From contig OY969425.1 of NCBI GenBank assembly GCA_963699255.1, positions 935,112 through 999,111 of the forward strand: a stretch of 64,000 nucleotides of DNA. Reading direction: 5' to 3'. Positions 16,036-64,000 of the stretch are shown piece by piece. Origin of the DNA: an uncultured bacterium. GTDB taxonomy: Bacteria > Margulisbacteria > WOR-1 > CAVSGV01. The notes under the pieces are model-generated. The model did no database searches. It saw nothing but the letters and a program-made list of their open reading frames with translations, and was not told the origin of the DNA. The position numbers and the translations under genes were made by a program. Numbering within the stretch: position 1 is the stretch's first letter; the number at the start of each line of letters is the position of its first letter.

Positions 16036-16043
16036 GATTTCTC

Positions 16044-29895: not shown

Positions 29896-30651
29896 ATGAA
29901 CTTATCCGGCAATACGGTCCTGATAACCGGCGGAGCGACGGGGATCGGATATGCGATGGCGGAGGCGTTCCTTGAAGCCGGCAGCGAAGTCCTGATCTGC
30001 GGGCGCAGGGCGACCAGGCTGCGCGAAGCGCAAAAGAACCATCCCGAATTCCATAATAAAGTTTGCAACATTGCGGATGATAAGGATAGAAAGTCCCTTT
30101 TCGAGTGGGCGACGTCGAATTTCAGGGATCTGAACGTCCTTGTGAACAATGCCGGCATTCAGCGCGACATAGACCTGACAAAGGGCCTTTATGAGATCAC
30201 CTCGGGCGAAAACGAGATAAAGGTAAACCTGGAAGCGCCGATATATCTCTCCGCGCTGTTCATCCCGTTCCTGGCGAAAAAGAAAGGTGCGGCGATAATA
30301 AACGTATCATCCGGGCTTGGTTTTGTGCCGGCAGTCAAGATGCCGATATACAGCGCGACAAAAGCCGGCGTCCACGCTTACAGCATGGTCCTGAGGCAGC
30401 AGATGTTAAAGATCGGCATAAAAGTTTATGAAGTGATACCGCCGACGGTGGACAGCGAGCTGAACAAAGAAGGAAGGGCGAAGAGGCACATGCCGGCGCC
30501 GGAGCTTAAGCCGAAGGAATTCGTAGCCGCCGTAATGAAGGGGCTTCAGCAGGATGAACCAGAGATAGGTTACGGCATGTCGGCAGGGTTCAAGACCGCT
30601 TCAAGGGCCGATCTGGACAAGAGTTTTCAGATGATGAACAGCAGAATGTAA
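29896..30651 (+). CDS. Short-chain dehydrogenase/reductase (SDR)
   Basis: TGGATGIG cofactor motif, NNAG and catalytic YSATKAG; start moved to the ATG at 29896 with RBS AGGGGGA. Confidence 0.85.
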   Translation: MNLSGNTVLITGGATGIGYAMAEAFLEAGSEVLICGRRATRLREAQKNHPEFHNKVCNIADDKDRKSLFEWATSNFRDLNVLVNNAGIQRDIDLTKGLYEITSGENEIKVNLEAPIYLSALFIPFLAKKKGAAIINVSSGLGFVPAVKMPIYSATKAGVHAYSMVLRQQMLKIGIKVYEVIPPTVDSELNKEGRAKRHMPAPELKPKEFVAAVMKGLQQDEPEIGYGMSAGFKTASRADLDKSFQMMNSRM

Positions 30652-30654
30652 ATG

Positions 30655-30830
30655 ACAAAACCCAAATGTCAAAATCCAAATGAATCATTTAAAGCCAAAT
30701 AACAAACCGGTCTTTCGTGTTCATTTGGAATTGGTCATTCTGTCTTGATTCATTTGTCATTTGATATTGGACATTTGTCATTATGCCCCCGTTAATCTCT
30801 ATTCTCTGATCTCTAATCTCTGCTTTTGTG
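30655..30830. repeat. Intergenic low-complexity repeat element (TGTCATTTG / AAATGACAAA motifs plus CTCTGATCTCTAATCTCT)
   Basis: Imperfect palindrome; the segment at about 30745-30786 (GATTCATTTGTCATTTGATATTGGACATTTGTCATTA) recurs at about 63113-63149, and the 19-mer recurs at about 16013-16031. Confidence 0.65.
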
Positions 30831-43721: not shown

Positions 43722-43743
43722 CGCCCGGAATCCAGTCCACTTA

Positions 43744-46823: not shown

Positions 46824-48468
<1,645 letters not shown>

Positions 48469-48478: not shown

Positions 48479-49174
48479 TCACCATATCAAAATTGAAACA
48501 ATTGCCCCCAAAGCGAGGAAAGGCGCGAACGGAATATAATCCTCCCTGTTCAGCTTTTTCAGCAGGATTAGCGCTATGCCCGCTGCGGCTCCGGTCAGCG
48601 AAGCGAAGAGAACGGATAGAAGCGTCCTCTCGATGCCGAGATTTGCCCCGAGCATGATAAGCAGCTTTATATCCCCGTCGCCCATCGCCTCTTTTTTTAA
48701 CGCGTATTTTGCCGCCGACGAGATCAGGAACATGAACGAAAAACCGAAACAAGCGCCGGTCAGGCTTTCGATAAAGTTGCCGCTATAAGCCGAATACGCG
48801 AGCCCCGTGCCGATCCCGATCAGCATCAGGAAATCGGGGATCACCATGTGTTCAATGTCAATAAAAGAAATAAGGACCAGCAGGATCGAGAATATTAAAA
48901 TAGCGGCGAACCGGACTGAAAAACCCACCTTTAGATAGAAGATCAATAACAGCGCCGCGGTCAGGGCTTCAACAACAGGATAGCGGATGGATATCTTTTC
49001 CCCGCAATATCTGCAGCGGCCGCGAAGGATCAAATAACTGATCAGGGGAATAAGGTCGTAAGCTCTCAAAGTTGACTTGCATTTCGGGCAGTGGGACGGC
49101 GGGTAAACGATCGATCCCTCTTCAGGGATCCTGGAAATACATACGTTCAGAAAACTTCCCGTAACAAGGCCCAA
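48479..49174 (-). CDS. pilD: Prepilin peptidase (A24 family)
   Basis: Zinc-binding CPKC...CRYCGEKIS and catalytic region MGDGDIKL; multiple TM helices. Confidence 0.8.
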   Translation of the reverse strand: MGLVTGSFLNVCISRIPEEGSIVYPPSHCPKCKSTLRAYDLIPLISYLILRGRCRYCGEKISIRYPVVEALTAALLLIFYLKVGFSVRFAAILIFSILLVLISFIDIEHMVIPDFLMLIGIGTGLAYSAYSGNFIESLTGACFGFSFMFLISSAAKYALKKEAMGDGDIKLLIMLGANLGIERTLLSVLFASLTGAAAGIALILLKKLNREDYIPFAPFLALGAIVSILIW

Positions 49175-49229
49175 AACAATTATTAGTGAGTAAATCGCTG
49201 CCGTTTCTACTTTAATGCCGCCTCTTTTC

Positions 49230-49258
49230 TTGACTTTACCAGCAAATAAATATATATT
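49230..49258 (+). promoter_or_regulatory. Sigma-70-like promoter (TTGACT-N17-TATATT) for the REC-pilB-pilC operon
   Basis: -35 at 49230-49235, -10 at 49253-49258. Confidence 0.4.
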
Positions 49259-49288
49259 AGTATATCTTTGAAGTCAAATCCGTCTTGA

Positions 49289-49308
49289 CCTGCCTGCCGG
49301 CAGGCAGG
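49289..49308 (+). promoter_or_regulatory. Perfect 20-bp GC-rich palindrome CCTGCCTGCCGGCAGGCAGG in the leader of the pilus operon
   Basis: Exact inverted repeat (10+10) between the predicted promoter and the ATG at 49322, with no following T-run. Confidence 0.5.
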
Positions 49309-49321
49309 GGCAGAAAGATCT

Positions 49322-49675
49322 ATGAAAAAAATCCTAGTGGTGGACGACGAGGAAAGCGTAAGAATCATATTAAAACAGATGCTTGAAAAGGGCGGCTACA
49401 GCGTTGAGGTCAGGAGCGACGGAGAGGAAGCGCTGGGGGCGCTAAAAAGCGGCCGTTTTAACATGCTTATCACCGACATTAATATGCCGAAAATGAACGG
49501 CATTGAACTCCTTTATAAAACAAAAGAAGAGTTCCCCGCCATGCCTGTGGTCTTTATCACCGCTTACGGAAAAGACAAAACGATAATTGAGGCAATGAAA
49601 ATGGGGCTCTCCGATAACATAGAAAAACCGTTCAGGATGGATGATGTCCTGAAGACCGTTAAAGACCTCATTTAA
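49322..49675 (+). CDS. Stand-alone response-regulator receiver (CheY-like)
   Basis: 117 aa; KILVVDDEESVR...MLITDINMPKMNG with acceptor Asp; no output domain. Confidence 0.8.
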   Translation: MKKILVVDDEESVRIILKQMLEKGGYSVEVRSDGEEALGALKSGRFNMLITDINMPKMNGIELLYKTKEEFPAMPVVFITAYGKDKTIIEAMKMGLSDNIEKPFRMDDVLKTVKDLI

Positions 49676-49692
49676 AGAAGGGACGTGAGCAG

Positions 49693-51390
49693 ATGCCCGT
49701 CAGGCAAAGAAAATCCCTCGGGGAAAGCCTTGTTGAACAAAAGATAATATCCGAAGAGCAGCTCAGGACCGCCGTAAAAGAAAGCGAGAACAGCGGCGAA
49801 CCGCTGAGAAAAACGCTTGTAAAGACCGGATTGGTCTCTGAAGAAGACATCTGCGGCTTCTTTGAGGAACAGCTAGGGATCCCCAGAATAGACCTGAAAA
49901 ATTACCTGATAGATCAAAAGATACTTTCGCTGATCCCCGAAAGTCTCGCCAAGAAATACAACCTGATCCCGCTTTTCAAGACCGGGGATACCCTGACGAT
50001 AGCCACCGCCGACCCTCTAAATGTCGTGGCTATGGATGAGATCAGGATAAAGACCAAAAGCAACATTGAACCCGCGGTGGCGACAGAAACCGAAATAAGG
50101 AACTCGATAAACCAGTATTACGGGGTAGGCGGCTCCATAGAAGACATCATCAGGAGCATTGACATAAAATCGCTCGCCATAGATGAAGGCAAGGAAGAAA
50201 TAGAGCCGGAAAAGCTGAAAAATATCGCGGAAGAAGCGCCCATAATCAAGCTTGTGAACCTGATAATCCTTCAGGCGATAAGGGATAAAGCTTCCGATAT
50301 TCACGTGGAACCGGAAGAGGACAGCCTGCAGATCAGGTTCAGGGTCGATGGGATCCTGCATGAGCAGGCCACCATCCCGAAACAGATGCAGGCGGCGGTG
50401 CTTTCCAGAATGAAAATAATGTCCGACATGAACATCGCGACAAAAAGGATCCCTCAGGACGGAAGGTTCAGGTTGAACATAGAGGGAGGACAGATAGATA
50501 TGAGAGTGTCATCCCTCCCGACCATCTTCGGCGAAAATATCGTGATGAGGCTTCTTGATACGACAAGCATACTTATCGGTCTGGAAAGGCTGGGCTTTGA
50601 CGAAAAAAACCTTGAAAAATTCAAGTCCCTTATCGTCAAACCGCACGGGATAATCCTTGTTACGGGTCCTACAGGTTCCGGGAAAACAACGACGCTGTAT
50701 TCCGCTTTGAACACCATAAACACTCCGGACAAGAACATCATTACGGTCGAAGATCCGGTGGAATATCAGCTGAAAATGATCCGCCAGTCGCAGATAAACC
50801 CGAAAGCGGGGCTTACTTTCGCGACGGGACTGCGTTCGATCTTAAGGCAGGATCCGGACGTAATAATGGTCGGTGAAATAAGGGACCTGGAGACGGCTGA
50901 AATATCGATCCAGGCGGCGCTGACCGGGCATCTGGTGTTTTCCACCCTTCACACGAACGATGCCCCCAGTTCGCTGACCAGATTGACCGACATGGGGGTT
51001 GAACCTTTCCTTATATCCTCTTCCGTGATCGGGATCATCGCCCAGAGACTTGTAAGAACGATATGTCCGTCCTGCAAGCAATCCTATACCCCTTCCAAGG
51101 AGGCCCTTGATGATATAGGCGTAACACTTCCGGAAGGACCGCTGAAGTTCTACAGGGGCGCCGGATGCAAGGTCTGCAAGAACACCGGATACAAAGGCAG
51201 GATAGGGATATTTGAAATGCTCCTGCTTGATGACAAGATCAGGGACCTGATCCTTGCCAAAACCTCGAGTGCTCAGATAAAACACCTGGCGCAGGAATCC
51301 GGCATGAAGACGCTGCGCGAGGACGGGGTCGTAAAAGTGCTCGCGGGCGCTACCACGATAGATGAAGTTATCAGGGTAACTCAGGAATAA
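49693..51390 (+). CDS. pilB: Type IV pilus assembly ATPase (GspE/PilB family)
   Basis: N-terminal GspE-type domain, Walker A VTGPTGSGKTTTLYS, C-terminal tetracysteine CPSC...CKVCKNTGYKGRIGIFE. Confidence 0.9.
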   Translation: MPVRQRKSLGESLVEQKIISEEQLRTAVKESENSGEPLRKTLVKTGLVSEEDICGFFEEQLGIPRIDLKNYLIDQKILSLIPESLAKKYNLIPLFKTGDTLTIATADPLNVVAMDEIRIKTKSNIEPAVATETEIRNSINQYYGVGGSIEDIIRSIDIKSLAIDEGKEEIEPEKLKNIAEEAPIIKLVNLIILQAIRDKASDIHVEPEEDSLQIRFRVDGILHEQATIPKQMQAAVLSRMKIMSDMNIATKRIPQDGRFRLNIEGGQIDMRVSSLPTIFGENIVMRLLDTTSILIGLERLGFDEKNLEKFKSLIVKPHGIILVTGPTGSGKTTTLYSALNTINTPDKNIITVEDPVEYQLKMIRQSQINPKAGLTFATGLRSILRQDPDVIMVGEIRDLETAEISIQAALTGHLVFSTLHTNDAPSSLTRLTDMGVEPFLISSSVIGIIAQRLVRTICPSCKQSYTPSKEALDDIGVTLPEGPLKFYRGAGCKVCKNTGYKGRIGIFEMLLLDDKIRDLILAKTSSAQIKHLAQESGMKTLREDGVVKVLAGATTIDEVIRVTQE

Positions 51391-51401
51391 GATAATTCAG
51401 C

Positions 51402-52616
51402 ATGCCAACTTTTTCCTATAAAGCGAGAGACGAAACCGGCAAGCCGATCTCCAGCATAATGGAAGCGTCAAATAAAGATGCCCTTGCCTCAAGGCTGCAA
51501 AAGCTCAAGTACACGGTCATCTCAATTTCCGAAAAAGCGATCCCGTTCACAATAGATAAGTTCCTGCGAAGGTTCACCAGAGTAAAGATCAATGACCTGG
51601 TAATGTTCAATGTTCAACTTGCCAATATGATAGGCGCCGGGATCCCGTTGCCATCGAGCCTTATGACCCTTTCGGAACAGATCGAGAACGAAAGATTAAA
51701 GGATGCCGTAAGCGACGTATATAACGAGATAAAGGGAGGCCAGACCTTCGCTGACTCCTTAAAAAAACATCCCGATATTTTCCCCCCGCTTTTCACGAAC
51801 ATGATACATGCCGGCGAGGTCGCCGGGAACCTGGATGAAATATTGAACAGGCTGGCGACATTCGTGGAACACGAATCGGAGCTGAGGCAAAAAATAACCA
51901 CGGCGCTGTTTTATCCGATGATCCTTGCCGTATTCGGCACTGCCGTCGTGGTGTTAATTATTGTTACTATACTTCCCTCTTTCGCCAAAATATTCATCGA
52001 AGCTAATGTTCCGCTGCCGCTGCCGACAATGGTGCTTTATAACCTGAACCTGGTAATAAGGGCTTACTGGAAGCATATTATTGTGGCGATTGCAGCGCTG
52101 TTCTTTCTCGCGAGGTGGTACAAAAGGACCCCGACCGGGAAATATTACCTGGACAGCGCCATGCTCAATATCCCTGTCTGGGGAAAACTGATAAGGGAGT
52201 CAACGGTCGCCCGCCTCACAAGGACACTTGCGTCGCTCATTTCAGCCGGCGTCCCGATGCTGCAGTCACTTGAGGTAACGGAGAAGACAATAGACAACTC
52301 GATAATCTCCGGGGTTCTGAAGGACGTATATTCATCGGTAAGCAAAGGCGAGACTATTTCAGAACCGCTAAGGAAAAGCGGCCAGTTCCCGGCTATGCCC
52401 ATCCACATGATAGCCGTTGGTGAAGAAACCGGTGCACTGGATACAATGCTCAACAAAGTTGCCGATTATTACGACATGGAAACAGAATACAGCATAAAAA
52501 GGATCACTTCGCTTCTTGAGCCTATTTTTCTGGTCATTATCGGCGGTATGGTGGGATTCATTTTTGCATCTATACTGCTGCCCATATTCCAGATGGTGAA
52601 GACGCTGAAACACTAG
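51402..52616 (+). CDS. pilC: Type IV pilus inner-membrane platform protein (GspF/PilC family)
   Basis: Two-repeat GspF architecture with three TM segments; 404 aa. Confidence 0.9.
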   Translation: MPTFSYKARDETGKPISSIMEASNKDALASRLQKLKYTVISISEKAIPFTIDKFLRRFTRVKINDLVMFNVQLANMIGAGIPLPSSLMTLSEQIENERLKDAVSDVYNEIKGGQTFADSLKKHPDIFPPLFTNMIHAGEVAGNLDEILNRLATFVEHESELRQKITTALFYPMILAVFGTAVVVLIIVTILPSFAKIFIEANVPLPLPTMVLYNLNLVIRAYWKHIIVAIAALFFLARWYKRTPTGKYYLDSAMLNIPVWGKLIRESTVARLTRTLASLISAGVPMLQSLEVTEKTIDNSIISGVLKDVYSSVSKGETISEPLRKSGQFPAMPIHMIAVGEETGALDTMLNKVADYYDMETEYSIKRITSLLEPIFLVIIGGMVGFIFASILLPIFQMVKTLKH

Positions 52617-52768
52617 AGGAGCTAGAAGAACTAGATGTTAAGAGGTGAAAAGGTTGAGAAGAAAAAGAGGAAGGACCTCTTTACCTCTTCCACTTTTAGC
52701 TCCCCTAGCTCTTCTAATTCTTGCGTATTATTATTACGGTAGTATAATGTTTTTCGTCTCTGGTACAT

Positions 52769-53815
52769 ATGGAAATAAACAGCTTACTTAAAATAGTAGT
52801 TGAAAAAAATGCTTCGGATCTGCTCATCGTATCCGGAACAGCTCCTGTACTCAGGATCAACGGGGCGCTTTCTCCCATAGATTCCGCGAGACTCTCTGAA
52901 AGCGAAGCAAAATCCCTGATCTACGGTCTTCTCACTCCGAAACAGATAGAAACCTTCGAGAAAACAAAGGAACTTGACTGCGGTTATGAACTTAAAGGCG
53001 TATCAAGGTTCAGGGTCAACGTTCACTATCAAAGAGGCACGGCAGCAGCGGCACTGAGGCTTATCCCTTCCGAGATCCCGACGCTCGAGGACTTAAGGCT
53101 CCCAAATGTTGTTGCCGATTTCGCCAACCTTGAGCGGGGGCTGGTGCTTGTGACCGGACCCACGGGATCCGGGAAAACCACAACGCAGGCGTGCATGGTG
53201 GACATTATCAATGCGAGCAGGAGCCGCCACGTGATAACCATAGAAGACCCCATCGAATACGTCCACGGAAACAAAAGAAGCATTGTGGAACAAAGAGAGG
53301 TCGGACTCGACACCGAATCCTTTGATTCCGCCTTGAAGAGAGTGCTAAGGCAGAACCCTGATGTCATACTGATAGGGGAAATGAGAGACCTGGAAACCAT
53401 ACAAACCGCTATAACAGCCGCGGAAACAGGCCACCTTGTCATATCCACCCTTCATACGAACGACGCTGTGCAGGCGGTAGACCGCATTATCGATGTTTTC
53501 CCGCCATACCAGCAGACCCAGGTAAGGATGCAGCTTTCGCTGTCCCTGCAGGGGATAATGGCCCAGCAGCTTATACCGAGAATAGACAAGAAGGGACAGA
53601 TAGTCGCCACAGAGGTCCTTATTGCCACTTCGGCCGTCAGGAATTTGATCAGGAAAGGCACCACCCAGGAGCTATATTCCACACTGGACATAGGCGCGAA
53701 ATTCGGGATGCAGAGCATGGATGCCTGCCTTAAGAATCTATACAAGAACAAGTTGATATCATACGACGAAGCTTTCGCGCACGCGATAAACCAGGAGCAT
53801 TTCGAGAAACTTTGA
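52769..53815 (+). CDS. pilT: Twitching-motility retraction ATPase
   Basis: 348 aa; LVLVTGPTGSGKTTT Walker A, GHLVISTLHTND and general PilT length. Confidence 0.9.
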   Translation: MEINSLLKIVVEKNASDLLIVSGTAPVLRINGALSPIDSARLSESEAKSLIYGLLTPKQIETFEKTKELDCGYELKGVSRFRVNVHYQRGTAAAALRLIPSEIPTLEDLRLPNVVADFANLERGLVLVTGPTGSGKTTTQACMVDIINASRSRHVITIEDPIEYVHGNKRSIVEQREVGLDTESFDSALKRVLRQNPDVILIGEMRDLETIQTAITAAETGHLVISTLHTNDAVQAVDRIIDVFPPYQQTQVRMQLSLSLQGIMAQQLIPRIDKKGQIVATEVLIATSAVRNLIRKGTTQELYSTLDIGAKFGMQSMDACLKNLYKNKLISYDEAFAHAINQEHFEKL

Positions 53816-53839
53816 CATTTCGTCCCGTTATAATATAAT
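53812..53839 (+). promoter_or_regulatory. Sigma-70-like promoter (TTGACA-N16-TATAAT) for the pilin gene
   Basis: -35 at 53812-53817, -10 at 53834-53839, then RBS AGGAGGGGG and ATG at 53864. Confidence 0.45.
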
Positions 53840-53863
53840 GTAAAAAAAGGAGGGGGTGAAAAA

Positions 53864-54316
53864 ATGAAAACAAGCAAAGGCTTTACTCTTATCGAGTTAC
53901 TCATAGTCATGGCGGTCATAGCCATATTGATCGCTATAGCGATCCCTAGCTTCAGAGGCATGCAGCAGGAAGCAAGGAAGACAAAGGCTCAGGGCGACGT
54001 CAGGGTAATAAAGATTGCTATCGAATCTTACTACAAGAATCATAACAATCAATACCCGGCTACTGGAGTCGACTACCAGACAACACTGCAAAACGCTGTA
54101 CCAAGGATACTTGAAGGAACGTTGAACGATCCTTTCAGCGTAGGTGCAAATGTGCCTTATCAGTATGCTCTAAGCGGTGCAGACCCAACGAGTTCCGATT
54201 ACTATATCATATGGTCAGTCGGACCGAATCAATCAGCTGTACCGGCCACAGTGTCAACATCAGGCATTGTTACGGCAACAAATGAGGTGATCTGGGAATC
54301 GAACGGTCACATGTAA
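53864..54316 (+). CDS. Type IV pilin (major pilin candidate)
   Basis: Class III signal MKTSKG/FTLIELLIVMAVIAILIAIAIPSF with Glu5 after the G/F cleavage site; 150 aa. Confidence 0.85.
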   Translation: MKTSKGFTLIELLIVMAVIAILIAIAIPSFRGMQQEARKTKAQGDVRVIKIAIESYYKNHNNQYPATGVDYQTTLQNAVPRILEGTLNDPFSVGANVPYQYALSGADPTSSDYYIIWSVGPNQSAVPATVSTSGIVTATNEVIWESNGHM

Positions 54317-54350
54317 TCACGGAATGTCTTTAAAGACATGTTGATTTAAA

Positions 54351-54381
54351 GGGAGCTGACTAGTCGGCTCCCTTTCTTTTT
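54351..54381 (+). terminator. Intrinsic terminator after the pilin gene
   Basis: Stem GGGAGC...GCTCCC followed by TTTCTTTTT. Confidence 0.55.
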
Positions 54382-54384
54382 AAT

Positions 54385-54545
54385 TTCCAATGACCAATCC
54401 CAAATAAATACCAATTAATTTGCAATTACCAATTTGACAATTGACCGCTAAGTACAAAAGCGCACAATTTGTCTTATTTCATTGACTAATTGGACATTGG
54501 TCATTAATTTGACATTTGACACTGGAAATTGGTAATTGATTTTCC
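54385..54545. repeat. Low-complexity intergenic repeat (CCAAT / ATTGG and TTGACA motifs)
   Basis: CCAATGACCAATCC...CAATTACCAATTTGACAATTGACC...TTGGACATTGGTCATTAATTTGACATTTGACACTGGAAATTGGTAATTG with inverted symmetry. Confidence 0.55.
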
Positions 54546-54564
54546 TTTGTGTTATCATTTCTTC

Positions 54565-54924
54565 ATGAAATCAAAGGGTTTTACTCTACTTGAGATCCTC
54601 CTGATAATAATCATCCTTATTTTAGTTTTCTTTCCGCTTTTGGAGATGCTCTCAAGCGGCCTTCTGGTAAGCGACAAAGTAAAAAGCACGAACACCGCCA
54701 TGATACTTGCCCAGCAACAAATGGAGGCCGTTAAGAATTCCTCCTTCACTTCCATAAGCAGCACACCTCAGACCACGATCGCGTCATACCCGGCCTATAG
54801 CTCACAGGTCATAGTAAGCACGCCTCAAACTAATTTAAAGGATGTTCAGGTGATAGTATACTGGCTTTCGGTCACAGGATCACAAACAAGTGTATCTATT
54901 GAAACATTTATATCGAATTTCTAA
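54565..54924 (+). CDS. Minor pilin / pseudopilin with prepilin-type N-terminus
   Basis: MKSKG/FTLLEILLIIIILILVF; start taken at the internal ATG at 54565. Confidence 0.65.
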   Translation: MKSKGFTLLEILLIIIILILVFFPLLEMLSSGLLVSDKVKSTNTAMILAQQQMEAVKNSSFTSISSTPQTTIASYPAYSSQVIVSTPQTNLKDVQVIVYWLSVTGSQTSVSIETFISNF

Positions 54925-54937
54925 GGAGCTCACACAG

Positions 54938-55501
54938 ATGCTTGGATTTGCTCAGCATGACACACAATGTCGCTCTGAACGAAGTGAAGGATCTGCCTTG
55001 AAGGAAAGTCTGCGGCGTTCTGCAGGGTTCACCTTAGTGGAATCCGTTTTAGTGCTGGCTATGCTCGGTTTTTTGATGGTCGTGATCTTTTACGCCTTCA
55101 CGGCCTCCATGCGCATCTTCACGAGTGAGATGTCCGAAGCCGATACATCCCTGGAAACGCACAGGGCCATGGAGCGGATGACAAAAGAGCTGAGGGGCGC
55201 CCTTCAGATAGTTTCGGCGGAGGCTTCAAGCATAACCTTCTGGTATAACGATCTAAATGGTGATGGAACAATGGAAGCGAATGAAACCGTAACATATTCC
55301 TGGACAGGAGCATCTCCGGGATACATAAACAGGACTGTGCAAACTTCGACACAGGAGGTCTCGTCCGGGATCATGAACTTTTCTCTTACATATAATGACC
55401 CGGACCCGTCCAATATCAACTTCATCACCATATTTATGGCCGCTCAGAATGGCTCTACCATGAGCACGCTCGAATCCAGTGTGGACTGCAGAAATTTATG
55501 A
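54938..55501 (+). CDS. Minor pilin / pseudopilin with long leader
   Basis: RRSAG/FTLVESVLVLAMLGFLMVVIFYAF after a ~30-aa leader; RBS AAGGAG before the ATG at 54938. Confidence 0.6.
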   Translation: MLGFAQHDTQCRSERSEGSALKESLRRSAGFTLVESVLVLAMLGFLMVVIFYAFTASMRIFTSEMSEADTSLETHRAMERMTKELRGALQIVSAEASSITFWYNDLNGDGTMEANETVTYSWTGASPGYINRTVQTSTQEVSSGIMNFSLTYNDPDPSNINFITIFMAAQNGSTMSTLESSVDCRNL

Positions 55502-55513
55502 TATAATCAGGTT

Positions 55514-57130
55514 GTGCCGGGAAATAATATAGTTATTGGACTGGACATAGACGGAAAATCTGTCAAGTTCGCAAAGCTTAAGAAAACTGACAGCGAAACG
55601 ACCCTTTTAAAATACGCCGTCCGCGAAGTTCCCCCATCAGAAGATAAGATCAAAGCGGTCTCAGACATCCTTAAAGACCTGTTCAAGGGCGAAAGACAGG
55701 ACACCGAAGTTTACACCTGCGCGTTCGGGACAAATGTTAGCTTAAAACGCCTGACCATCCCCGTGATGCCGGATGAAGAGATAAGGGAAGCCCTGCAGTG
55801 GGAAGCCAAAAACCTGGTCCCCTTCCCTATCGAGAATTCCACATTGGATTTCTACAAGATAGGCAAGATATCCGACAAGGCTGTGGAAAAGTATGACGTC
55901 ATGTTCGCCGTCGCCGGTGAGGAATTGCTCAGCTTCCTGACCTCCGTCTCAAAAGAATCCGGGATCCGATTTTCAGGGATATCGCTTATCCCTCTTGCGC
56001 TAAGCGCGCTCCTGCTCCACAACAAAAAGTTCGATAAAGATAAGATCAATGCCATCATAGATATCGGGGCCGAAGCTGCCAGCATAAACCTTTTCAAAGG
56101 CGATGTGCTTAACTTCACAAGGGTGATAACCGTTGCAGGCGACTCCCTCACAAAAGCCATGACAGGGCTCCTTGTGGCTGACCGATGGCAGCTGAATCTG
56201 ACCTATGAACAAGCCGAGGAAATAAAGAAAAAATACGGCATACCAAAAAAAGACACGACCGAGGTCACGGACAGCGGGATACCGCTGGTCCACATCTACG
56301 AGATGATGGCTCCAACACTGCGCAGGCTCCAGAACGAGATCCTAAGATCTTTCGATTATTATAAAGAGGAATTCAGGGAGGAAAAGATCGACAGAATATT
56401 CCTTACAGGCGGCACCTCACACCTGATCAATCTGGAAGAATTCCTCTCCAACGCGCTCGGAATAAAGGTAGAGACCTTAAATCCCTTTGAAAACCTGAAA
56501 ATAGACCCATCATCAGGAATAGCCCCCGCAGCATTAAAAGAAGCGTCGCCAAGGCTTGCCCTTGCTGCAGGTCTTGCCCTGGAACAAAGCGAAAAAATAA
56601 ATTTCCAGAGGAAAATGGAAAAGTCGCGAAAGCTGATAGGCCTGGAAGGGATGTTCGGCAAGATCAAATTAAAGATCCCGGTACAGATCCCGGTAAATCT
56701 TTTCGCCTATGGTTTAGTGGCGTTATTGATCCTTGCTTTCTCATATAACTTTTACCTGACAAGACTTAGGGATCACTACAAAAAAGAGATCGCGTCAAAA
56801 CAAGCCATTCTAACGGATGTTAAGACCCTTATTGACAAAAGAACGATCCTTGAACAGATCTCAAAGGAAGAAACCCACATAAGAGAAACCCTGTCGCAAA
56901 TGACGCGGGTGCTGCCCGCGGGCATAACCCTGACGGACCTTACATACGATAACTCGCAGCGCCAGATATGGCTGGCAGGCGCCGCCAGTGACACAAATGC
57001 GGTCGGCAGACTGCTGAAGAACTTTGAGGATTCTCCGAACTTCAAAAAAGCGGTGCTGATAGAAGCGCGCAAAGGGGCGTTTGAAGGCGTCCAAAAGGTC
57101 ATTTTTAAGATTACTTTTAACCTGACTTGA
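55514..57130 (+). CDS. PilM-PilN fusion protein
   Basis: N-terminal actin-like PilM domain (IGLDIDGKSVKFAKL..., IDIGAEAASINLF), then a TM helix and PilN-like periplasmic region; 538 aa. Confidence 0.75.
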   Translation: MPGNNIVIGLDIDGKSVKFAKLKKTDSETTLLKYAVREVPPSEDKIKAVSDILKDLFKGERQDTEVYTCAFGTNVSLKRLTIPVMPDEEIREALQWEAKNLVPFPIENSTLDFYKIGKISDKAVEKYDVMFAVAGEELLSFLTSVSKESGIRFSGISLIPLALSALLLHNKKFDKDKINAIIDIGAEAASINLFKGDVLNFTRVITVAGDSLTKAMTGLLVADRWQLNLTYEQAEEIKKKYGIPKKDTTEVTDSGIPLVHIYEMMAPTLRRLQNEILRSFDYYKEEFREEKIDRIFLTGGTSHLINLEEFLSNALGIKVETLNPFENLKIDPSSGIAPAALKEASPRLALAAGLALEQSEKINFQRKMEKSRKLIGLEGMFGKIKLKIPVQIPVNLFAYGLVALLILAFSYNFYLTRLRDHYKKEIASKQAILTDVKTLIDKRTILEQISKEETHIRETLSQMTRVLPAGITLTDLTYDNSQRQIWLAGAASDTNAVGRLLKNFEDSPNFKKAVLIEARKGAFEGVQKVIFKITFNLT

Positions 57131-57209
57131 AAATAGAAATTGAAGACCCGAGACTAAAGTCTCGGATAAGTTAACCGCGACTTCAGTCGCAAGGTTTAGG
57201 AAAAATAAT

Positions 57210-58028
57210 ATGCAGGAATTCTCATCTAAATGGCAGAATTTAATAGTGTGGACACTGGCGGTCCTCCTTCTGCTCTACGGCGCATACCATTATCTTTATC
57301 AACCCAAGCTGAAGGAGATCGAAACCCTGAAAAGCTCGCTGAAAATGATCGACAACGAAATAATGATGATAGAAGGCGGCGACCTTTTGCTCAAGGACCT
57401 GAACGCGGCCAAAGTCATGCTGAAGAAAGAACTGGAAGAGCTTTCAGTAAAGATCCCTTCGGAGGTGGACACCCCCTATCTGATAAATAACTTCATCTCT
57501 GTTGTTGGCAAAGGATTGAATATAGATTATAATCTTATCCAGCCTTCGGGTCTTGAGGATGAGCAGAAATATAAAAGACTTCCTCTTAAAGTTGAATTTG
57601 AGGGGGATTACTCTGGCCTGAATTCGTATCTGGCACAGTTAAAGAAGTTGCCGGTCACAATAAGAGTGGATTCCATGGAGCTTCGCAAGGTATCCGGGAC
57701 CAACAAGCTTACCGTAAGCATGATGCTTTCTGCGTTCGTAATGCCCGGGGGACCCGAAAAACCGCCGGGAACAGTAAGAGGGTATTCTTACATGTTCGAT
57801 CCTTTTTACGTGGGAAGCGGGAAGGCAAAACAACAAAAGCCTGAAGGAATTCAAGGTTTGCAGTACTCCGGCTACTTTAAGGGCAGGGAAATAAAGGCCA
57901 TTATTAACGATGAGCCCCTTCAGGCCGGGGAAAGCATACAGGGGTTCAGGATATTGAAAATTTACAAGGACAGGGTTATCCTTATTAAGGACAAAAAGTC
58001 GTATGTGCTTACTCTTGAGGGAAAATAA
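57210..58028 (+). CDS. PilO-like protein, possibly with PilP-like C-terminal domain
   Basis: N-terminal TM plus coiled coil typical of PilO; the C-terminal ~80 aa resemble a PilP beta-domain. 272 aa is long for PilO alone. Confidence 0.55.
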   Translation: MQEFSSKWQNLIVWTLAVLLLLYGAYHYLYQPKLKEIETLKSSLKMIDNEIMMIEGGDLLLKDLNAAKVMLKKELEELSVKIPSEVDTPYLINNFISVVGKGLNIDYNLIQPSGLEDEQKYKRLPLKVEFEGDYSGLNSYLAQLKKLPVTIRVDSMELRKVSGTNKLTVSMMLSAFVMPGGPEKPPGTVRGYSYMFDPFYVGSGKAKQQKPEGIQGLQYSGYFKGREIKAIINDEPLQAGESIQGFRILKIYKDRVILIKDKKSYVLTLEGK

Positions 58029-59852
58029 ATGAGATACATTTCGGAAACAATGAACCTGCGACTAAACCCCAACCAGGGTGTTGGGGTAAACGTCGCGGTT
58101 CCTTTTAGTGAACGTAAATCGCTCAGATTTTGGAACCGAGAAGTTTATTCTCAGGTTCCAAAAATTATTTGTTTATTGATCGTTTTGACCGCGGCATCTG
58201 CCGCCTTTCCGGCATCATCACACAGCATCCCGAACCAGACCGCGAACATATCCGCAACAAGAGCTGAGGCTTATTTCGCGCAGGGATATCTTTACTTCCT
58301 GGAGAAAAGTTATAATGAAGCCATACCGGAATTCGTTAAAGCGCTCCAGCTTGTGCCCGATATGGTTAAAGCTCGTTACTGGATGGCAAAGACTTATTAC
58401 CAGTTAGGGCGGTACAAGAACGTCGTAAATCAATGCTCCGCGGCTTTATCTGTCGCCCCGAAATATAAGAACGCGAGATCCCTTCTGCTTCGCGCGCAGA
58501 CAATGCTTGATACCGAAAAGGCACCACGGACAAAGGCGGTCAGGGCAAGGAAAAGAACAGGGATAAGAAGAACCATAACAAGAAGGACTGAAACAAGAAG
58601 AACTGAAACAAGCACGGCCACGGTAAACAGCAACTCACAACACACGATCTCCCTGGATCTAAGGAACGTGGACATAAGTTCGGTGCTTCAGATCCTCTCA
58701 AGGGAAACAGGTATCAGCATAATTGCCGGCTCCGACGTATACGGAAAAGTAACGGCCATATTGAACAATGTTCCGCCCCAGGAAGCTCTTGATACCATAC
58801 TTAAATCCAACGGCTATACATACACGAGGCAGGGCGACATCGTTCAGGTGTTCTCTTCATCCGAGCCCGCAAGAGTGGAAGAGCTTCCCGGAGGTGTATT
58901 TGTAAGGACGTTCATTATCAATTATGTGGGTCCCGACGAGCTTCTCTCGACCCTGACAAAGCTTATGCCCGAGGATACCAGCATATACACAACAAAAGGA
59001 AGCAAGACCGTGGTCGTAAAAGGATCCGCCAATGATATCAGGAGAGCGGAAGTCCTGATAAGGAACCTGGACATTCCCCCCCGTCAGGTAATGGTTGAGG
59101 CCAAGATAATCGAGGTGGACCTGAACGAAACTCAAACCTTGGGAATGAACAACTCCTGGACCAATCCGGACAACGCCACTCAGAACCTTCAAACAACTGG
59201 ACTTGCGAATCCGCCGACCGCCACCGGAGCAACAGGGCTTTATTACTCGATCACGGACCAGAACATCACATCCCTTGTTGAAGCGCTCTCAACCAGAACA
59301 GGCTTCAACATACTTTCCAGCCCGAAGGTCATGGCCCTGAACGAACAGAAAGCAGAAATAATGACCGGCTCGCAGCTTGGTTACTACGTAAATACCGTCA
59401 CGACCACCGGACTTGTGCAGAACGTTGAGTTCATGGATGTCGGCACAAAACTGGACATAACGCCATCGGTAAAGAGCGACGGCATGATCGTAATGGACAT
59501 TCACCCCGAAATATCTGACGGTTCGATCGTGAACAATCTCCCTCAAAAGAATTCAACGGAAACAACGACCCAGCTTATAGTGAAGGACGGGCAGACCATA
59601 ATAATCGGCGGGCTGGTAAGGGACACTCAACAAAAAGAGGTCCACGGAGTCCCTGTTCTTATGGACATACCGGTTCTTGGAGCCTTTCTTAAAAGGACGG
59701 AATATACTTCCGAGAAAAAGGAGATCATAGTGCTGATGACCCCCCACATAGTGAATTCGAAATATATAGAAGAAATGGAAAGTAAAGCCTCGGACATGGA
59801 AAAACAAAGAAGGGATATCACCCCCTCAATGCCTCTCGACCTTGTAAGGTAA
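58029..59852 (+). CDS. pilQ: Type IV pilus secretin (GspD/PilQ family) with N-terminal TPR-like region
   Basis: Secretin N-domain ISLDLRNVDISSVLQILSRETGISIIAG and C-terminal signature GVPVLMDIPVLGAFLKRTEYTSEKKEIIVLMTPHIV. Confidence 0.8.
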   Translation: MRYISETMNLRLNPNQGVGVNVAVPFSERKSLRFWNREVYSQVPKIICLLIVLTAASAAFPASSHSIPNQTANISATRAEAYFAQGYLYFLEKSYNEAIPEFVKALQLVPDMVKARYWMAKTYYQLGRYKNVVNQCSAALSVAPKYKNARSLLLRAQTMLDTEKAPRTKAVRARKRTGIRRTITRRTETRRTETSTATVNSNSQHTISLDLRNVDISSVLQILSRETGISIIAGSDVYGKVTAILNNVPPQEALDTILKSNGYTYTRQGDIVQVFSSSEPARVEELPGGVFVRTFIINYVGPDELLSTLTKLMPEDTSIYTTKGSKTVVVKGSANDIRRAEVLIRNLDIPPRQVMVEAKIIEVDLNETQTLGMNNSWTNPDNATQNLQTTGLANPPTATGATGLYYSITDQNITSLVEALSTRTGFNILSSPKVMALNEQKAEIMTGSQLGYYVNTVTTTGLVQNVEFMDVGTKLDITPSVKSDGMIVMDIHPEISDGSIVNNLPQKNSTETTTQLIVKDGQTIIIGGLVRDTQQKEVHGVPVLMDIPVLGAFLKRTEYTSEKKEIIVLMTPHIVNSKYIEEMESKASDMEKQRRDITPSMPLDLVR

Positions 59853-60545
59853 TCTGGGAACGGATTCAAGAAGCAGCTTCGTATAAGGATGCTTCGGATT
59901 CGAGTATAGCTCTTCAACCCCGCCAGTCTCTATTATCCGGCCGTTCTTCATGACCGCCAGCACGCCGCACATGAATTTAACGACTGACAGGTCATGGGCG
60001 ATAATAAGGAAGGTCAAAGCGAATTGAGCCTTCAGCTTCTTTAAAAGTTTCAATATCTCAAGCTGTACGGTCATATCAAGCGAGGAAACCGGCTCATCAA
60101 GAACGATGAATTTAGGCCTGATGCTCATGGCGCGCGCGATGCAGAGCCTCTGCCTCTCCCCTCCCGAGAGCTCGTGCGGATATCTATCCGCGTAGCTTTC
60201 ATCAAGGTCCACTTCGCGCAGGATCTCACTGATGTCCCTGGTTATCCCGTGAATTTTAAGCGGTTCCGCAAGGGCCTCCCCCACCTTCATCCTGGGATCG
60301 AGCGACGTATACGGGTTCTGGAATACGATCTGATAGTCCTTCCTTGAGAAGCCCGGAGAATATGTAACTTCTCCCGAAGAAGCGGATATCAGCTTCAGTA
60401 TGATCCTCGCGAGCGTCGTCTTGCCCGATCCCGATTCCCCGACAAGCCCGAAAGATCCGCCCTCGTCGATCGAAAAGCTCACGCTATCGAGCGCTTTTAA
60501 TCCGCCAAAAAGTTTTGAAATATTATTTACTTCCACTGATCTCAA
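59826..60545 (-). CDS. ABC transporter ATP-binding protein (OppF/DppF-like)
   Basis: Walker A GESGSGKTT, signature LSGGERQR, Walker B IVLDEP. Confidence 0.9.
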   Translation of the reverse strand: MRSVEVNNISKLFGGLKALDSVSFSIDEGGSFGLVGESGSGKTTLARIILKLISASSGEVTYSPGFSRKDYQIVFQNPYTSLDPRMKVGEALAEPLKIHGITRDISEILREVDLDESYADRYPHELSGGERQRLCIARAMSIRPKFIVLDEPVSSLDMTVQLEILKLLKKLKAQFALTFLIIAHDLSVVKFMCGVLAVMKNGRIIETGGVEELYSNPKHPYTKLLLESVPRLPYKVERH

Positions 60546-61327
60546 GGGTTCATCTCCCTGTAAGAGCTCACGAGCTTAGCCGTATAGGCGTCCTTCGGGA
60601 CGGCGATGATATCGCTGGAGCTCCCCTCTTCCACGATCCGGCCGTTCTGCATCACGTATATCCTGCCGCAAAGCATGGAGACAAGCGCTATGTTGTGAGA
60701 GATGAAAAGCATGGTCGTCTTAAGCTCCCGCAAAAGATCCAATATGTTCTTCTGCATCGTCACATCAAGGGCCGTTGTCGGTTCATCTGCAATAAGAAGG
60801 TCCGGAGAAAGCGCGTAAGCCATAGCCACCGCGACCCTCTGCTTCATCCCGCCGCTGAACTGGTGCGGATAGTCGTTCGCCCGCTGATGCGGGTCCTTTA
60901 TGTGTACCAGGTCCAGAAGTTCAACCGCCCTGTCCCAGGCCTGCTTCCTTGGAAGCCCCTGATGGATCCTGAACACCTCCGCTATCTGCTCTCCTATCTT
61001 GAATACCGGGTTCAGTGAGGAGAACGGGTCCTGGAACACCATTGAGATATCCCCGCCCCTTATTTCCTGCATCTCCGCTTCGGAAAGATTCAGCAGGTTC
61101 CTGCCTTTCCATTTGATCTCGCCATATATCTTTCCCGGCGGGTCGATCAACCTGAGTATCGCGAGCGCCAGCGAAGATTTGCCGCAGCCCGATTCCCCCA
61201 CAAGCCCCACGATCTCGCCTTTTTGAATGTAAAGACTCGCGTTCTCAACGGCTTTTTTGATATCATCCTTGTAGCCGTAGTGAACGGAAAGTTTTTGTAT
61301 GTCCAGCAGCCTGTCTTCCGTGTTCAT
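60542..61327 (-). CDS. ABC transporter ATP-binding protein (OppD/DppD-like)
   Basis: Walker A GESGCGKSS, signature FSGGMKQR, Walker B LIADEPTTALD. Confidence 0.9.
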   Translation of the reverse strand: MNTEDRLLDIQKLSVHYGYKDDIKKAVENASLYIQKGEIVGLVGESGCGKSSLALAILRLIDPPGKIYGEIKWKGRNLLNLSEAEMQEIRGGDISMVFQDPFSSLNPVFKIGEQIAEVFRIHQGLPRKQAWDRAVELLDLVHIKDPHQRANDYPHQFSGGMKQRVAVAMAYALSPDLLIADEPTTALDVTMQKNILDLLRELKTTMLFISHNIALVSMLCGRIYVMQNGRIVEEGSSSDIIAVPKDAYTAKLVSSYREMNP

Positions 61328-62148
61328 TCCTTTGGATTCAACTCCTCCCTTAAAGCTTCACCGACAAAGTAAAGAGAAAGCACCGCAAGAACTATCACAA
61401 GCCCGGGAATGACCGCCATCCACGGAGCATCCAGAAGATAAGACTGAGAATCCATCAGCATGTTCCCCCAGCTCGGCATGGGAGGCTGCACTCCGAGGCC
61501 GAGAAAGCTCAAGGCTGATTCGGTAAGTATCGCTCCGGCCGCCCCCAGAGTGCCGGCCACAATAACAGGAGGCAGAGCATTGGGAAGGATGTGCCTGAAT
61601 ATGATCCTGAGATCGCTGCAGCCTATCGCCCTAGCCGCTTCCACGAATTCGCGCTCCTTTATGGCCAGGAACTCCCCTCTTACAAGCCGCGCTATACCCA
61701 TCCAGGAAGTCGCGCCGATCACGATCATCACGTTGAATATGCTGGGCGTCAGGACCGACTGTATCGCTAGTATCAGAAAAATGGTCGGAAAGGAGAGCAT
61801 GATATCCGTAAAACGCATAATCACTTCATCAAGTATCCCGCCGTAATAGCCGGATACGCACCCGAACAGGATCCCGATCGTCAAGGAAACGGAAACAGCT
61901 ATCAGAGCGACCGAAAGGGATACTCTTCCCCCATATAAAAGGCGGCTGAAAATATCGCGCCCAAGATCATCTGTCCCGAATATGTGCCTCACCGAAGGCG
62001 CGGCGATATGGTCTTCCAGTATATCGTTCGGATCATACGGGGCAATAACAGGAGCGAACACCGCCAGAAAGAACAGAGCTGACAGTATTATCAGTCCGAA
62101 TAATGCGAGCTTATTTTTTTTCAGCATATCTGATCCTCGGGTCAACAA
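61324..62148 (-). CDS. ABC transporter permease (OppC/DppC-like)
   Basis: Polytopic; EAA-like loop FVEAARAIGCSDLRIIFRHILPN typical of binding-protein-dependent permeases. Confidence 0.85.
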   Translation of the reverse strand: MLTRGSDMLKKNKLALFGLIILSALFFLAVFAPVIAPYDPNDILEDHIAAPSVRHIFGTDDLGRDIFSRLLYGGRVSLSVALIAVSVSLTIGILFGCVSGYYGGILDEVIMRFTDIMLSFPTIFLILAIQSVLTPSIFNVMIVIGATSWMGIARLVRGEFLAIKEREFVEAARAIGCSDLRIIFRHILPNALPPVIVAGTLGAAGAILTESALSFLGLGVQPPMPSWGNMLMDSQSYLLDAPWMAVIPGLVIVLAVLSLYFVGEALREELNPKE

Positions 62149-63025
62149 CAGCGTACCCTATATCGGCCAAAAGGTTGCACAGGACTATCAAGACGGCGGT
62201 GAACAGGGTTATCCCCATGATAACAGGGTAATTCCTTGAAAATACGGCGGAAACGCCCAGCCGTCCCATTCCCGGCCATGCGAATATCGTCTCGATGATG
62301 AACGCGCCGCCGAAAAGGTCGGGAACCGAAAGACCGAGCAGCGTGACTATGGGTATGAGCGAATTCCTCAGCGCGTGCTTGAAAATGACTATGTTCTCCG
62401 GGAGCCCTTTCGCCCTGGCGACCTTAATGTATTCCTGTCCGAGCACTTCCAGCATGCTCGCCCTCTGGTACCTTGTTATTCCGGCAAGTCCCGAAATAAC
62501 CATCACCGCACATGGAAGGGCCAGATGGCCGAAAGGCGGGACCCATTCGAGCTTGAGAGAGAAAACAAGCATGAATATAAGGGCCAGCCAGAAGGACGGC
62601 ATGGACATGAAGACGAATGATATGACGGTAAAAAGATTATCGAAGACAGATCCTTTTTTTACGGCCGATATGACGCCGACAGGTATGGAGATAAGGAGGA
62701 TCAAAATGAACGAAAGGCCCGTTAACAGTAGCGTCGCGGGAAGTCTCTCGAATATCTCCTCGGCAACAGGTTTGCCGGAAATGTATGAATATCCAAAATT
62801 CAGGACCGCGGCGTTCTTAAGCCACATGACATACTGGACGGCTACGGGCTTATCGAGTCCCCAGTTCGAACGGATCCTGGCGAGTTCCTCCGGCTTCACG
62901 TTCGGGTCCGTGAAAAGTGATGTCGGATCCCCGGGAGCAAGATGCATCACAAAAAAAGTTATTAGGGTAATCCCTATTAACAAAGGTATTAGCTGTATTA
63001 ATCTTCTTACTATATATTTTTTCAT
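62111..63025 (-). CDS. ABC transporter permease (OppB/DppB-like)
   Basis: MKKYIVRRLIQLIPLLIGITLITFFVMHLAPGDP N-terminus and EAA-like loop YIKVARAKGLPENIVIFKHALRN. Confidence 0.85.
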   Translation of the reverse strand: MKKYIVRRLIQLIPLLIGITLITFFVMHLAPGDPTSLFTDPNVKPEELARIRSNWGLDKPVAVQYVMWLKNAAVLNFGYSYISGKPVAEEIFERLPATLLLTGLSFILILLISIPVGVISAVKKGSVFDNLFTVISFVFMSMPSFWLALIFMLVFSLKLEWVPPFGHLALPCAVMVISGLAGITRYQRASMLEVLGQEYIKVARAKGLPENIVIFKHALRNSLIPIVTLLGLSVPDLFGGAFIIETIFAWPGMGRLGVSAVFSRNYPVIMGITLFTAVLIVLCNLLADIGYAVVDPRIRYAEKK

Positions 63026-63029
63026 ATAA

Positions 63030-63150
63030 TTTCAAAATCCAAATGACAAAGCTCAAAGGAATCTATTAAATCCAAATCAAACAAAAACATTTCCCTTGAT
63101 TTGTCATTCTCAGATTCATTTGTCATTTGATATTTGTCATTTGTCATTAC
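63030..63150. repeat. Second copy of the TGTCATTTG-type intergenic repeat
   Basis: GATTCATTTGTCATTTGATATTTGTCATTTGTCATTA at about 63113-63149 nearly matches 30745-30786; it overlaps the last codons and stop of the substrate-binding gene. Confidence 0.65.
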
Positions 63151-64000
63151 TCTTTATGTAAACTTTCTCGATATCAACGAACAATCCTGCCGGGCCGGGT
63201 TCGGATAATCCTCCTACCCTGTCCCTTACCCCGGTCAGGACGTTCGGATACCACAGGAACACGTAAGGAGCGCTCCCCGTGATCTCCTTGTACATCCGCG
63301 CGTATATCTTCTTCCTGGCGGCTTTTGACTGTTCCCGTCTTCCGGCGTCAAGAAGCCTGTCCACTTTCGGATCGCTGTATCCGATAAAATTAAGCCCCGC
63401 CGGATACTGGCTTGAATGCCATATCGAATATGAATCGGGATCGATGCCCGTGGACCAGCCGATTATGACCGCGTCAAAATCTTTCGGGTCCTTTCGCGCG
63501 TTGATCACCTTCAGCAGCGCGCTCCATTCAAGCACCCTTATGTTCATCTTTACTCCGACCCGCTTGAATTGCTGTTGAAGTATCGTCGCGGCCTTTTCCC
63601 TCTCTTTGTTCCCGTGGTTCACCAGGACGGTGAATTCAAGGTTCCTCACTTTTGCCTTACGCAGAAGTTCCTTTGCTTTTGCGGGATCGTATCCATATTT
63701 ATCCACGTCATCGCTGTAAGCCCAGGAAACAGGCGCGGAAGGAGAGTATGCCGGCGAAGCCAATCCCATGAAGATAAGGCCGATTAGCTGCTTCCTGTTG
63801 ACCGCGTAAGACAGGGCTTTTCTAACTCTTACATCCGAGAACTTTGGCGACCTGAGGTTGAATCCGAGATAGGTATACAGAAGCGCGTCGTACTTATAAA
63901 GGTTCACGTGTTTTATCGGATGGAAATCTTTCGGAGGAATGTCCGTTACATCAATGTCCCCCGACCTGAGGGCTACAAGCGCGGTGTTCTCATCGGGGAT
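63137..64000 (-). CDS. ABC transporter substrate-binding protein (family 5, peptide/nickel type), N-terminal part outside the window
   Basis: C-terminal 256+ aa resemble Opp/Dpp-type binding proteins; the reading frame stays open to the window edge. Confidence 0.7.
   Translation of the reverse strand: MPDENTALVALRSGDIDVTDIPPKDFHPIKHVNLYKYDALLYTYLGFNLRSPKFSDVRVRKALSYAVNRKQLIGLIFMGLASPAYSPSAPVSWAYSDDVDKYGYDPAKAKELLRKAKVRNLEFTVLVNHGNKEREKAATILQQQFKRVGVKMNIRVLEWSALLKVINARKDPKDFDAVIIGWSTGIDPDSYSIWHSSQYPAGLNFIGYSDPKVDRLLDAGRREQSKAARKKIYARMYKEITGSAPYVFLWYPNVLTGVRDRVGGLSEPGPAGLFVDIEKVYIKSNDK

Follow-up and report, generated by a model that had tools for sequence, protein, structure and literature searches.

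An inverted heptamer-array repeat at the binding-protein/permease junction of a peptide ABC transporter operon

In an operon for a peptide ABC transporter, a 123-base element, referred to as copy 2, lies at the junction between the genes of the substrate-binding protein and the first permease; it is built of two inverted arrays of seven-base units. We consider it probable that copy 2 represents a dispersed repeat of 120–140 bp, akin to the REP, MITE and STRR sequences, and that its insertion broke the coupling of the two genes, with polarity as a likely, inferred consequence. All positions given here refer to the window, the whole stretch of 64,000 nucleotides that was analysed, and those of the features are compiled in Table 1.

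On the basis of its Pfam domains, the minus-strand operon is an Opp/Dpp-type peptide ABC transporter composed of a binding protein, two permeases and two ATPases. The domain assignments also confirm that the element lies between the substrate-binding and first permease genes, as had been claimed in an earlier reading of the bare sequence (the sequence-only reading). According to the list of open reading frames, the downstream genes of the operon overlap by 38, 4 and 4 nt. The first permease opens with ATG AAA AAA TAT, and no clear Shine-Dalgarno sequence was read ahead of its AUG. The closest named relatives of the host are members of Candidatus Margulisiibacteriota/WOR-1, with 80% identity for enolase and 70% for the permease.

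Table 1. Positions of the element, its parts, its further copies and the surrounding operon genes in the window.
Feature	Position	Strand	Basis
Element copy 2, whole insert relative to empty orthologous junctions	63026..63148	minus	alignment and junctions of L128, L129, L131, L134, L147; nhmmer profile E 1e-28
5′ arm on mRNA, AATGA CAAATGA CAAATAT CAAATGA CAAATGA ATC	63113..63148	minus	sequence; TRF period 7, 4.7 copies at 63116-63148
Inner module, 49 nt, with short inner hairpin CAAAUCAAGGGAAAUGUUUUUGUUUGAUUUG	63064..63112	minus	fold
3′ arm on mRNA, GATTCCTTTGAGCTTTGTCATTTGGATTTTGAAATT (GATTC CTTTGAG CTTTGTC ATTTGGA TTTTGAA ATT)	63028..63063	minus	inverted repeats I1-I4; sequence
Element-supplied codons N-D-K and TGA stop of binding-protein gene	63137..63148	minus	ORF end; comparison with relatives
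41-codon ORF spanning the whole element	63022..63147	minus	ORF list; no Pfam match
Predicted mRNA hairpin, ca. 100 nt, AU-rich	63040..63143	minus	fold: dG -33.2 kcal/mol, z -4.5
Substrate-binding protein gene (SBP_bac_5)	63137..64000, truncated at window end	minus	Pfam E 3.4e-47, domain 63140-63997
First permease gene (BPD_transp_1_N/BPD_transp_1)	62111..63025	minus	Pfam; orthologues at 94-84% identity
Second permease gene (OppC_N/BPD_transp_1)	61324-62148	minus	Pfam
Rest of operon: second permease and two ABC_tran ATPases	59826..62148	minus	Pfam
Element copy 1	30648..30785	plus	nhmmer E 1e-37
Diverged third member, CCAATGA/ATTGGAC heptamers	54385..54540		nhmmer E 3.9e-5; fold z -2.9

The basic architecture of copy 2 is a pair of inverted arrays of the heptamer CAAATNN, which share a phased CAAA(T) core and flank a short inner hairpin. 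As the arrays are inverted, a CAAAT-type arm precedes an ATTTG-type arm on either strand. Over 36 nt, the arms match in register at 28 positions in copy 1 and at 24 in copy 2, and the inverted repeats I1-I4 are 78–86% complementary. Only 5 of 12 (copy 1) and 3 of 12 (copy 2) variable heptamer positions pair in register according to a hand count, which indicates that the phased core is conserved rather than perfect pairing. A hand count across the four full-length copies, whose alignment is ambiguous through the repetitive arms, likewise revealed no compensation at variable stem positions. Against an expectation of 0.57, the window contains four instances of the word TGTCATTTG, at 30755, 63121 and 63135 and, in minus-strand orientation, at 63040; three of these fall within 63040–63143, and none of 100 shuffled sequences reached a count of four.

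With its first 12 bases, the element contributes the three final codons and the stop to the binding-protein gene, whose 3′ end on the minus strand reads AGT AAT GAC AAA TGA, with N-D-K at 63148–63140 and the stop at 63139–63137. The corresponding claim of the sequence-only reading, that words of the element encode these residues, is thereby borne out by the ORF end. The element is also spanned by a 41-codon open reading frame, the ATG of which resides inside the codons N-D while its TGA overlaps the permease ATG, again as an ATGA overlap. This frame (63147–63022) may keep the coupling to the permease or may have arisen by chance; the probability of a 41-codon open frame in AT-rich sequence is roughly estimated at 0.06–0.2 and such a frame is not rare. 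In copy 2 the CAAATGA arm does not provide a TGA in every frame, as had been conceived, since two frames are closed and the third is the 41-codon ORF.

The region 63030–63150 had been described in the sequence-only reading as the second copy of a TGTCATTTG-rich element, and this holds at 80% identity to copy 1, the actual limits being at about 63026–63148. The identity is that of alignment columns between 63010–63165 and 30630–30800; the right arms of both copies share 95% identity over 37 nt (blastn E 3e-11). A family profile was built from four copies, and its search against the window gave copies 1 and 2 and the diverged third member. The window therewith contains three family copies within 64 kb, compared with almost none in ca. 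250 kb of relatives' DNA. Full-length relatives of the element were found in L005, L091, L086 and L062; copy 1, L005 and L091 follow the same plan as copy 2 and share the inner borders GAATC...GATTC, while the loops are not conserved. Since the arms are always paired around the bordered module, the element behaves as a discrete unit of 120–140 bp with presence/absence polymorphism.

The TAA stop of an SDR gene marks the start of copy 1, which is located upstream of a gene for a membrane protein of 75 amino acids. In all relatives the SDR protein ends with NSRM; the stop codon that follows is TAG there, as against TAA in the window. The site of copy 1 is empty in the closer relatives L137, L138 and L139 (88, 81 and 77% protein identity, 75-aa gene); the more distant L005 carries the element 38 nt from the start codon of the 75-aa gene, versus 72 nt in the window. 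A TAATCTC/GATCTCT run just upstream of this gene is conserved in L137 and L139. The third member directly follows a canonical terminator between two pilin-like genes. It is present with a different interior in L147 and L141, and absent in L129; the hairpin potential at this site is kept while the sequence diverges (z -2.9, -3.0 and -5.0).

Beyond these copies, the 19-mer of the arm retrieved seven loci from genome contigs, among which L005 alone is full-length, L006 displays a paired CAAAT-heptamer architecture, L001 contains the arm alone and the rest are chance matches. In metagenomes more than 120 contigs of 23–65% GC were matched, most of which share the arm alone or are unrelated coding matches. 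By a strict criterion, 25 paired inverted arrays were counted over all loci examined, including copy 1 and its duplicate L136. Where the flanks of paired-array elements could be classified, 12 of 16 are positioned between co-directional genes, and many are only a few bases away from the flanking ORFs or extend into the end of one. In L048, an unrelated metagenomic contig, heptamer hairpins at 1690–1802 and 2898–3006 (z -2.8 and -6.4) separate the pilus genes T2SSE, T2SSE and T2SSF, so that the intra-operon placement recurs. Period-7 arrays are frequent in the window, with twelve TRF rows including 63116–63148 and 30750–82, and comprise the heptamer families TCATTTG, GATCTCT/AGAGACC, CATCTCT, ACTTCTA, TAATCTC, ATCGATA and ATTGGAC. 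One hairpin of AGAGATC/GATCTCT units at 15954–16036 (dG -39.7 kcal/mol, z -4.4) fills the spacer of two co-directional genes, the preceding stop being at 15951–53 and the following ATG at 16045. Further arrays of this period were noted at 16921–16941, 17642–17661, 30793–30821, 36633–36651 and 48392–48424 (CATCTCT, ACTTCTA, TAATCTC, ATAATTA, ATCGATA). Metagenome loci such as L012, L020, L033, L087, L109 and L117 contain a longer conserved soil-metagenome repeat of the form …cagtaaatcgcgaaatagacgaagagttccatttgtcattgt-TCATTTGTCATTTGATATT-ggtcattgccggagga…caatgcccaatgttcatcgggcgatttccgg, which shares heptamer words with the element and otherwise looks like a separate family. The exact heptamer strings gave no match in the searchable literature.

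The history of copy 2 can be traced by comparison with orthologous operons, which were found via permease homologues at 94, 93, 91, 87 and 84% identity together with the closest relative L147. The junction is empty in six related lineages (L128, L134, L129/L130, L147, L131-L133 and L148-L150), in which the two genes overlap by ATGA; the window has ca. 120 extra bases, with 111 nt between the genes. The C-terminus of the binding protein is VYIKK in five of these lineages, VYIKKK in L131 and VYIKSNDK in the window, each followed by the stop. A BLAST alignment with L147 (86–90% at the nucleotide level) breaks exactly at 63140 and 63025; the two edges of the insert, ATGACAAA and ATGAAAAA, each align with the octamer ATGAGAAA of L147. 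In a neighbour-joining tree based on 2.2 kb of the operon, the window is the sister of the empty L147 (90% at the nucleotide level) within a clade of empty sites. This nested position implies that the insertion is later than the split from L147. Judged by these junctions, copy 2 was recently inserted at an ATGA stop/start overlap after the split from the closest sampled relative; in the same comparison, the ancestral K-stop was replaced by S-N-D-K-stop and the gene overlap was lost through the insertion.

The element has terminal inverted repeats in the form of its 36-nt arms, and empty and filled orthologous sites were found at the junction, the copy-1 site and the pilin site. The dinucleotide TA flanks both window copies (AG-TA-ATGAC...GAAAT-TA-TATG and ATG-TA-AATGAC...GTCAT-TA-TGCC). 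As an alternative to TA, an 8-nt ATGAnAAA repeat at both ends of copy 2 might represent the target-site duplication; L005 fits TA poorly. Neither a transposase nor a RAYT, the IS200/IS605-like Y1 transposase that accompanies REP/BIME sequences, was recognized by Pfam among the ca. 30 ORFs of the window, and no IS is present within its 64 kb. Mobility of the element is inferred from the presence/absence comparison.

On the mRNA strand, copy 2 is predicted to form the long hairpin listed in Table 1, and none of 200 shuffled sequences folded as stably. Folding of the opposite strand is weaker (-24.1, z -3.8); for copy 1 the value is -36.6 (z -3.8). The UGA stop of the binding-protein gene is located within the 5′ arm of the hairpin, and 14 nt separate the end of the stem from the permease AUG. 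A search of the whole window against Rfam 15 at gathering threshold yielded a tRNA as sole match; at the locus, matches up to E 10 were sub-threshold microRNA-like noise, the best local scores being 13–24 bits versus thresholds of 54–211. No IHF site was recognized in the element.

If copy 2 is a dispersed repeat inserted at this site, its effect on the operon might be envisaged as follows. The operon mRNA would now hold an interrupted AU-rich hairpin of ca. 100 nt between two cistrons, with a stop codon in its 5′ arm. ATGA stop/start overlaps are classically linked to translational coupling. With the loss of the overlap this coupling would be lost as well, and the permease would have to initiate alone on an AU-rich leader devoid of a Shine-Dalgarno sequence. 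The hairpin might moreover impede 3′-to-5′ exonucleases or attract an endonuclease, in either case protecting the upstream segment. Less permease than binding protein would then be produced, owing to the lost coupling and to the exonuclease barrier or processing site, and by analogy such a polarity in the binding protein : permease ratio is plausible. The barrier to exonucleases may be weak, as the stems are AU-rich and interrupted and their variable positions pair so sparsely. The direction of the effect is complicated by two observations. The 41-codon ORF could preserve the coupling, and, as the stem encloses the stop codon, ribosomes may stall at termination, so that less of the upstream product would result. 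In E. coli, a REP within 15 nt of a stop codon reportedly can lower the expression of the upstream gene through stalling and tmRNA tagging, as Liang, Rudd and Deutscher are said to have described in 2015. Any such polarity is probably a side effect of the insertion that is tolerated, and not the reason for the element.

The sequence-only reading had suggested that an intra-operon hairpin at this position sets the stoichiometry of binding protein to permease. Its structural part stands, as the element is intra-operonic, overlaps the gene end and folds significantly; a conserved device is contradicted by the six related lineages that have no spacer. That reading had also called for a comparison with orthologous operons lacking the element, and the empty ATGA overlaps of these lineages, the sister included, instead characterize it as a recent insertion of a dispersed repeat. 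Selection might nevertheless have kept the element to establish a high binding protein : permease ratio by partial termination or by protection of the upstream mRNA, as with the REP sequence at malE-malF. We regard such a selected regulatory hairpin as rather unlikely. It would be in line with the significant fold on the transcribed strand and with the precedent of REP-containing transcripts, which are stabilised in E. coli (PMC10100675). The operon evidently works without the element, which is absent from six of the eight sampled lineages, and members of the family also reside at unrelated sites (30648 and 54385). In addition, a U-tract terminator is missing and the stop codon within the stem may reduce, rather than raise, the output of binding protein.

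A further argument on this question is provided by the lineage L141-L146, whose permease is 88% identical and which carries a different insert of 164 nt at the same junction (L141 9837–10000). This insert is composed of GAAGTNG-type heptamers, is predicted to fold into a very stable hairpin with a dG of -58.8 (z -5.0) and has a good AGGAG before the permease ATG; no other copies of it were detected among the loci examined. The lineage branches separately from the window in the operon tree. Two different hairpin inserts in separate lineages are compatible with a benefit, and the remaining two ATGA junctions of the operon contain neither. Their coincidence suggests either that junctions are the sole tolerated sites in a packed operon or that some benefit is involved. 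However, as the operon offers three permissive ATGA junctions, two inserts would meet at one of them by chance in about one of three cases, and the coincidence therefore does not decide between tolerance and benefit. The operon is found in three states, ATGA-coupled, with the heptamer hairpin and with an unrelated hairpin, which constitutes a clean natural experiment; in this uncultured lineage, the three states would make it possible to test directly how the insertion of a small repeat affects translational coupling and the proportion of binding protein to permease.

A more far-reaching scenario, which we consider improbable, would view heptamer-array hairpins as widespread, cross-phylum and self-propagating elements that home to stop/start junctions by the similarity of the junction AAATGAAAAAAT to the unit AAATGACAAAT and that were recruited repeatedly, twice independently in this case; in compact genomes which otherwise depend on ATGA overlaps, they would serve to decouple translation and adjust the ratios of subunits. 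Element arms identical over 19–34 nt do recur among contigs of 30–65% GC.

The phased CAAAT cores could also act at the DNA level, their inverted arrays with 7-bp spacing being bound by a protein in the manner of the heptad arrays of ribbon-helix-helix repressors (omega) or by a nucleoid protein, with the hairpin being incidental. Conservation of the CAAAT core and of the 7-nt phase between arms and copies, instead of full complementarity, fits such an array, as does the recurrence of the arm motif in contigs across 30–65% GC. However, no candidate binding protein was identified, and unrelated heptamers (AGAGATC, ATCGATA, GAAGTNG) share the architecture in the lineage, which favours a structural or mutational origin. 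The orthologous copies at the pilin site, in addition, retain hairpin potential despite their diverged sequence. A binding array of this kind is accordingly quite improbable in our view.

Very improbable, finally, is a signal borne by the element itself, either an outward promoter for the permease genes with TTGTCA as -35 region or a terminator of the binding-protein transcript. MITEs such as the Correia elements carry promoters (PMC4853749), and in L005 (7463–7492) the terminal TTGTCA is situated 17 nt upstream of a TATAAT before the orthologous 75-aa gene, which might form a possible hybrid promoter. In the window, by contrast, a consensus scan of 62800–63400 revealed no promoter and no terminator in the element. 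The sole candidate -10 region (TATGAA) overlaps the permease ATG, so that a transcript starting from it could not encode the permease. An intrinsic terminator would consist of a GC-rich stem and a U run, whereas the stem of the element is AU-rich and followed by GAUUUUGAAAUUAU with four U only. The same scan of copy 1 detected just two weak promoter-like sites on the minus strand. A mere low-complexity spacer unrelated to any repeat family is effectively refuted. AT-rich spacers are common, and slippage during replication can generate short runs of heptamers (PMC4692102); however, the word count exceeds that of all shuffles, the identity to copy 1 persists over ca. 130 nt, the profile match is highly significant (Table 1) and the element is cleanly absent from orthologous junctions.

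Among known repeat systems, REP/BIME sequences at binding-protein/permease junctions are the closest functional precedent, whereas STRR-type repeats and MITEs are closest in architecture. As in REP/BIME, a small imperfect palindrome repeated in the genome is transcribed directly after the binding-protein gene of an ABC transporter operon, and hairpin formation in the mRNA is predicted here. At malE-malF and hisJ-hisQ, REP hairpins reportedly cause upstream stabilisation and polarity, as Newbury et al. 1987 and Stern et al. 1984 are said to have found. The sequences are unrelated: REP is a GC-rich palindrome of 35–40 nt with a GTAG head, while the element has AU-rich arms of phased heptamers and contains no GTAG head in 63026–63148 or 30648–30785, and hence falls outside the REP sequence definition. 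It is also longer (123 nt) and, in copy 2, overlaps the coding end by 12 nt including the stop. REP sequences are defined as strictly extragenic and as having many copies per genome.

STRR repeats are tandem intergenic units of period 7 with several heptamers per genome, partly organized as inverted arrays or stem-loops and partly within operons (PMC4692102; PMC4679880), and tandem period-7 intergenic units of several distinct heptamer families are found in the window as well. The Nostoc heptamer repeat ttgtcagttgtcagttgtca (PMC2408588) deviates by one base per unit from TTGTCAT of the element, and other intergenic heptamer repeats are TAACTGA of Beggiatoaceae and GGGAATC of Xanthomonas. In contrast to STRR, the arrays of the element are short (4–5 units), degenerate at 2–3 positions and always arranged as inverted arms around an inner module with GAATC/GATTC borders. 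The original STRR hosts are heterocystous cyanobacteria, which the host of the window is not (Margulisiibacteriota/WOR-1 being nearest named). Margulisiibacteriota are a sister group of Cyanobacteria. MITEs such as the Correia elements of Neisseria resemble the element in being non-coding and AT-rich sequences of 100–160 bp with terminal inverted repeats, which form long hairpins and occur in both orientations; they may have TA at both flanks, are often co-transcribed with their neighbours and vary in presence between relatives (PMC4853749). The inverted termini of the element match at only about 67–78% and are internally repetitive; a functional promoter was not recognized, and the element is not known to have a parental IS. 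On these comparisons, the element is a further member of the known small palindromic intergenic repeats. STRR-like heptamer hairpins are herewith extended beyond cyanobacteria to a probable Margulisiibacteriota relative and many metagenomic contigs. As palindromic repeats after binding-protein genes have been known since the 1980s, the value of these data is mainly descriptive and comparative.

Several other features of the window were recorded. Genes for a protein with a PriCT_1 primase C-terminal domain and for a ParB-like protein are found at 3727–6722, with an 88-nt tandem repeat nearby (2967–3127); this region may have been integrated or may derive from a plasmid. On the minus strand (17867–19344), genes for a BglII-like restriction endonuclease and an N6/N4 DNA methylase stand side by side and form a type II restriction-modification pair. 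At 34473–34587 a 33-nt tandem repeat (GGAGCCACAGGAGCCGGAGCTTCC...) of about three copies is located apparently within a coding region. At 40869–45587 two genes for NtrC-type response regulators follow a sigma-54 gene, and a large type IV pilus cluster (prepilin peptidase, T2SSE, T2SSF, PilM/N and others), syntenic with that of relatives, extends from 48479 to 59852.
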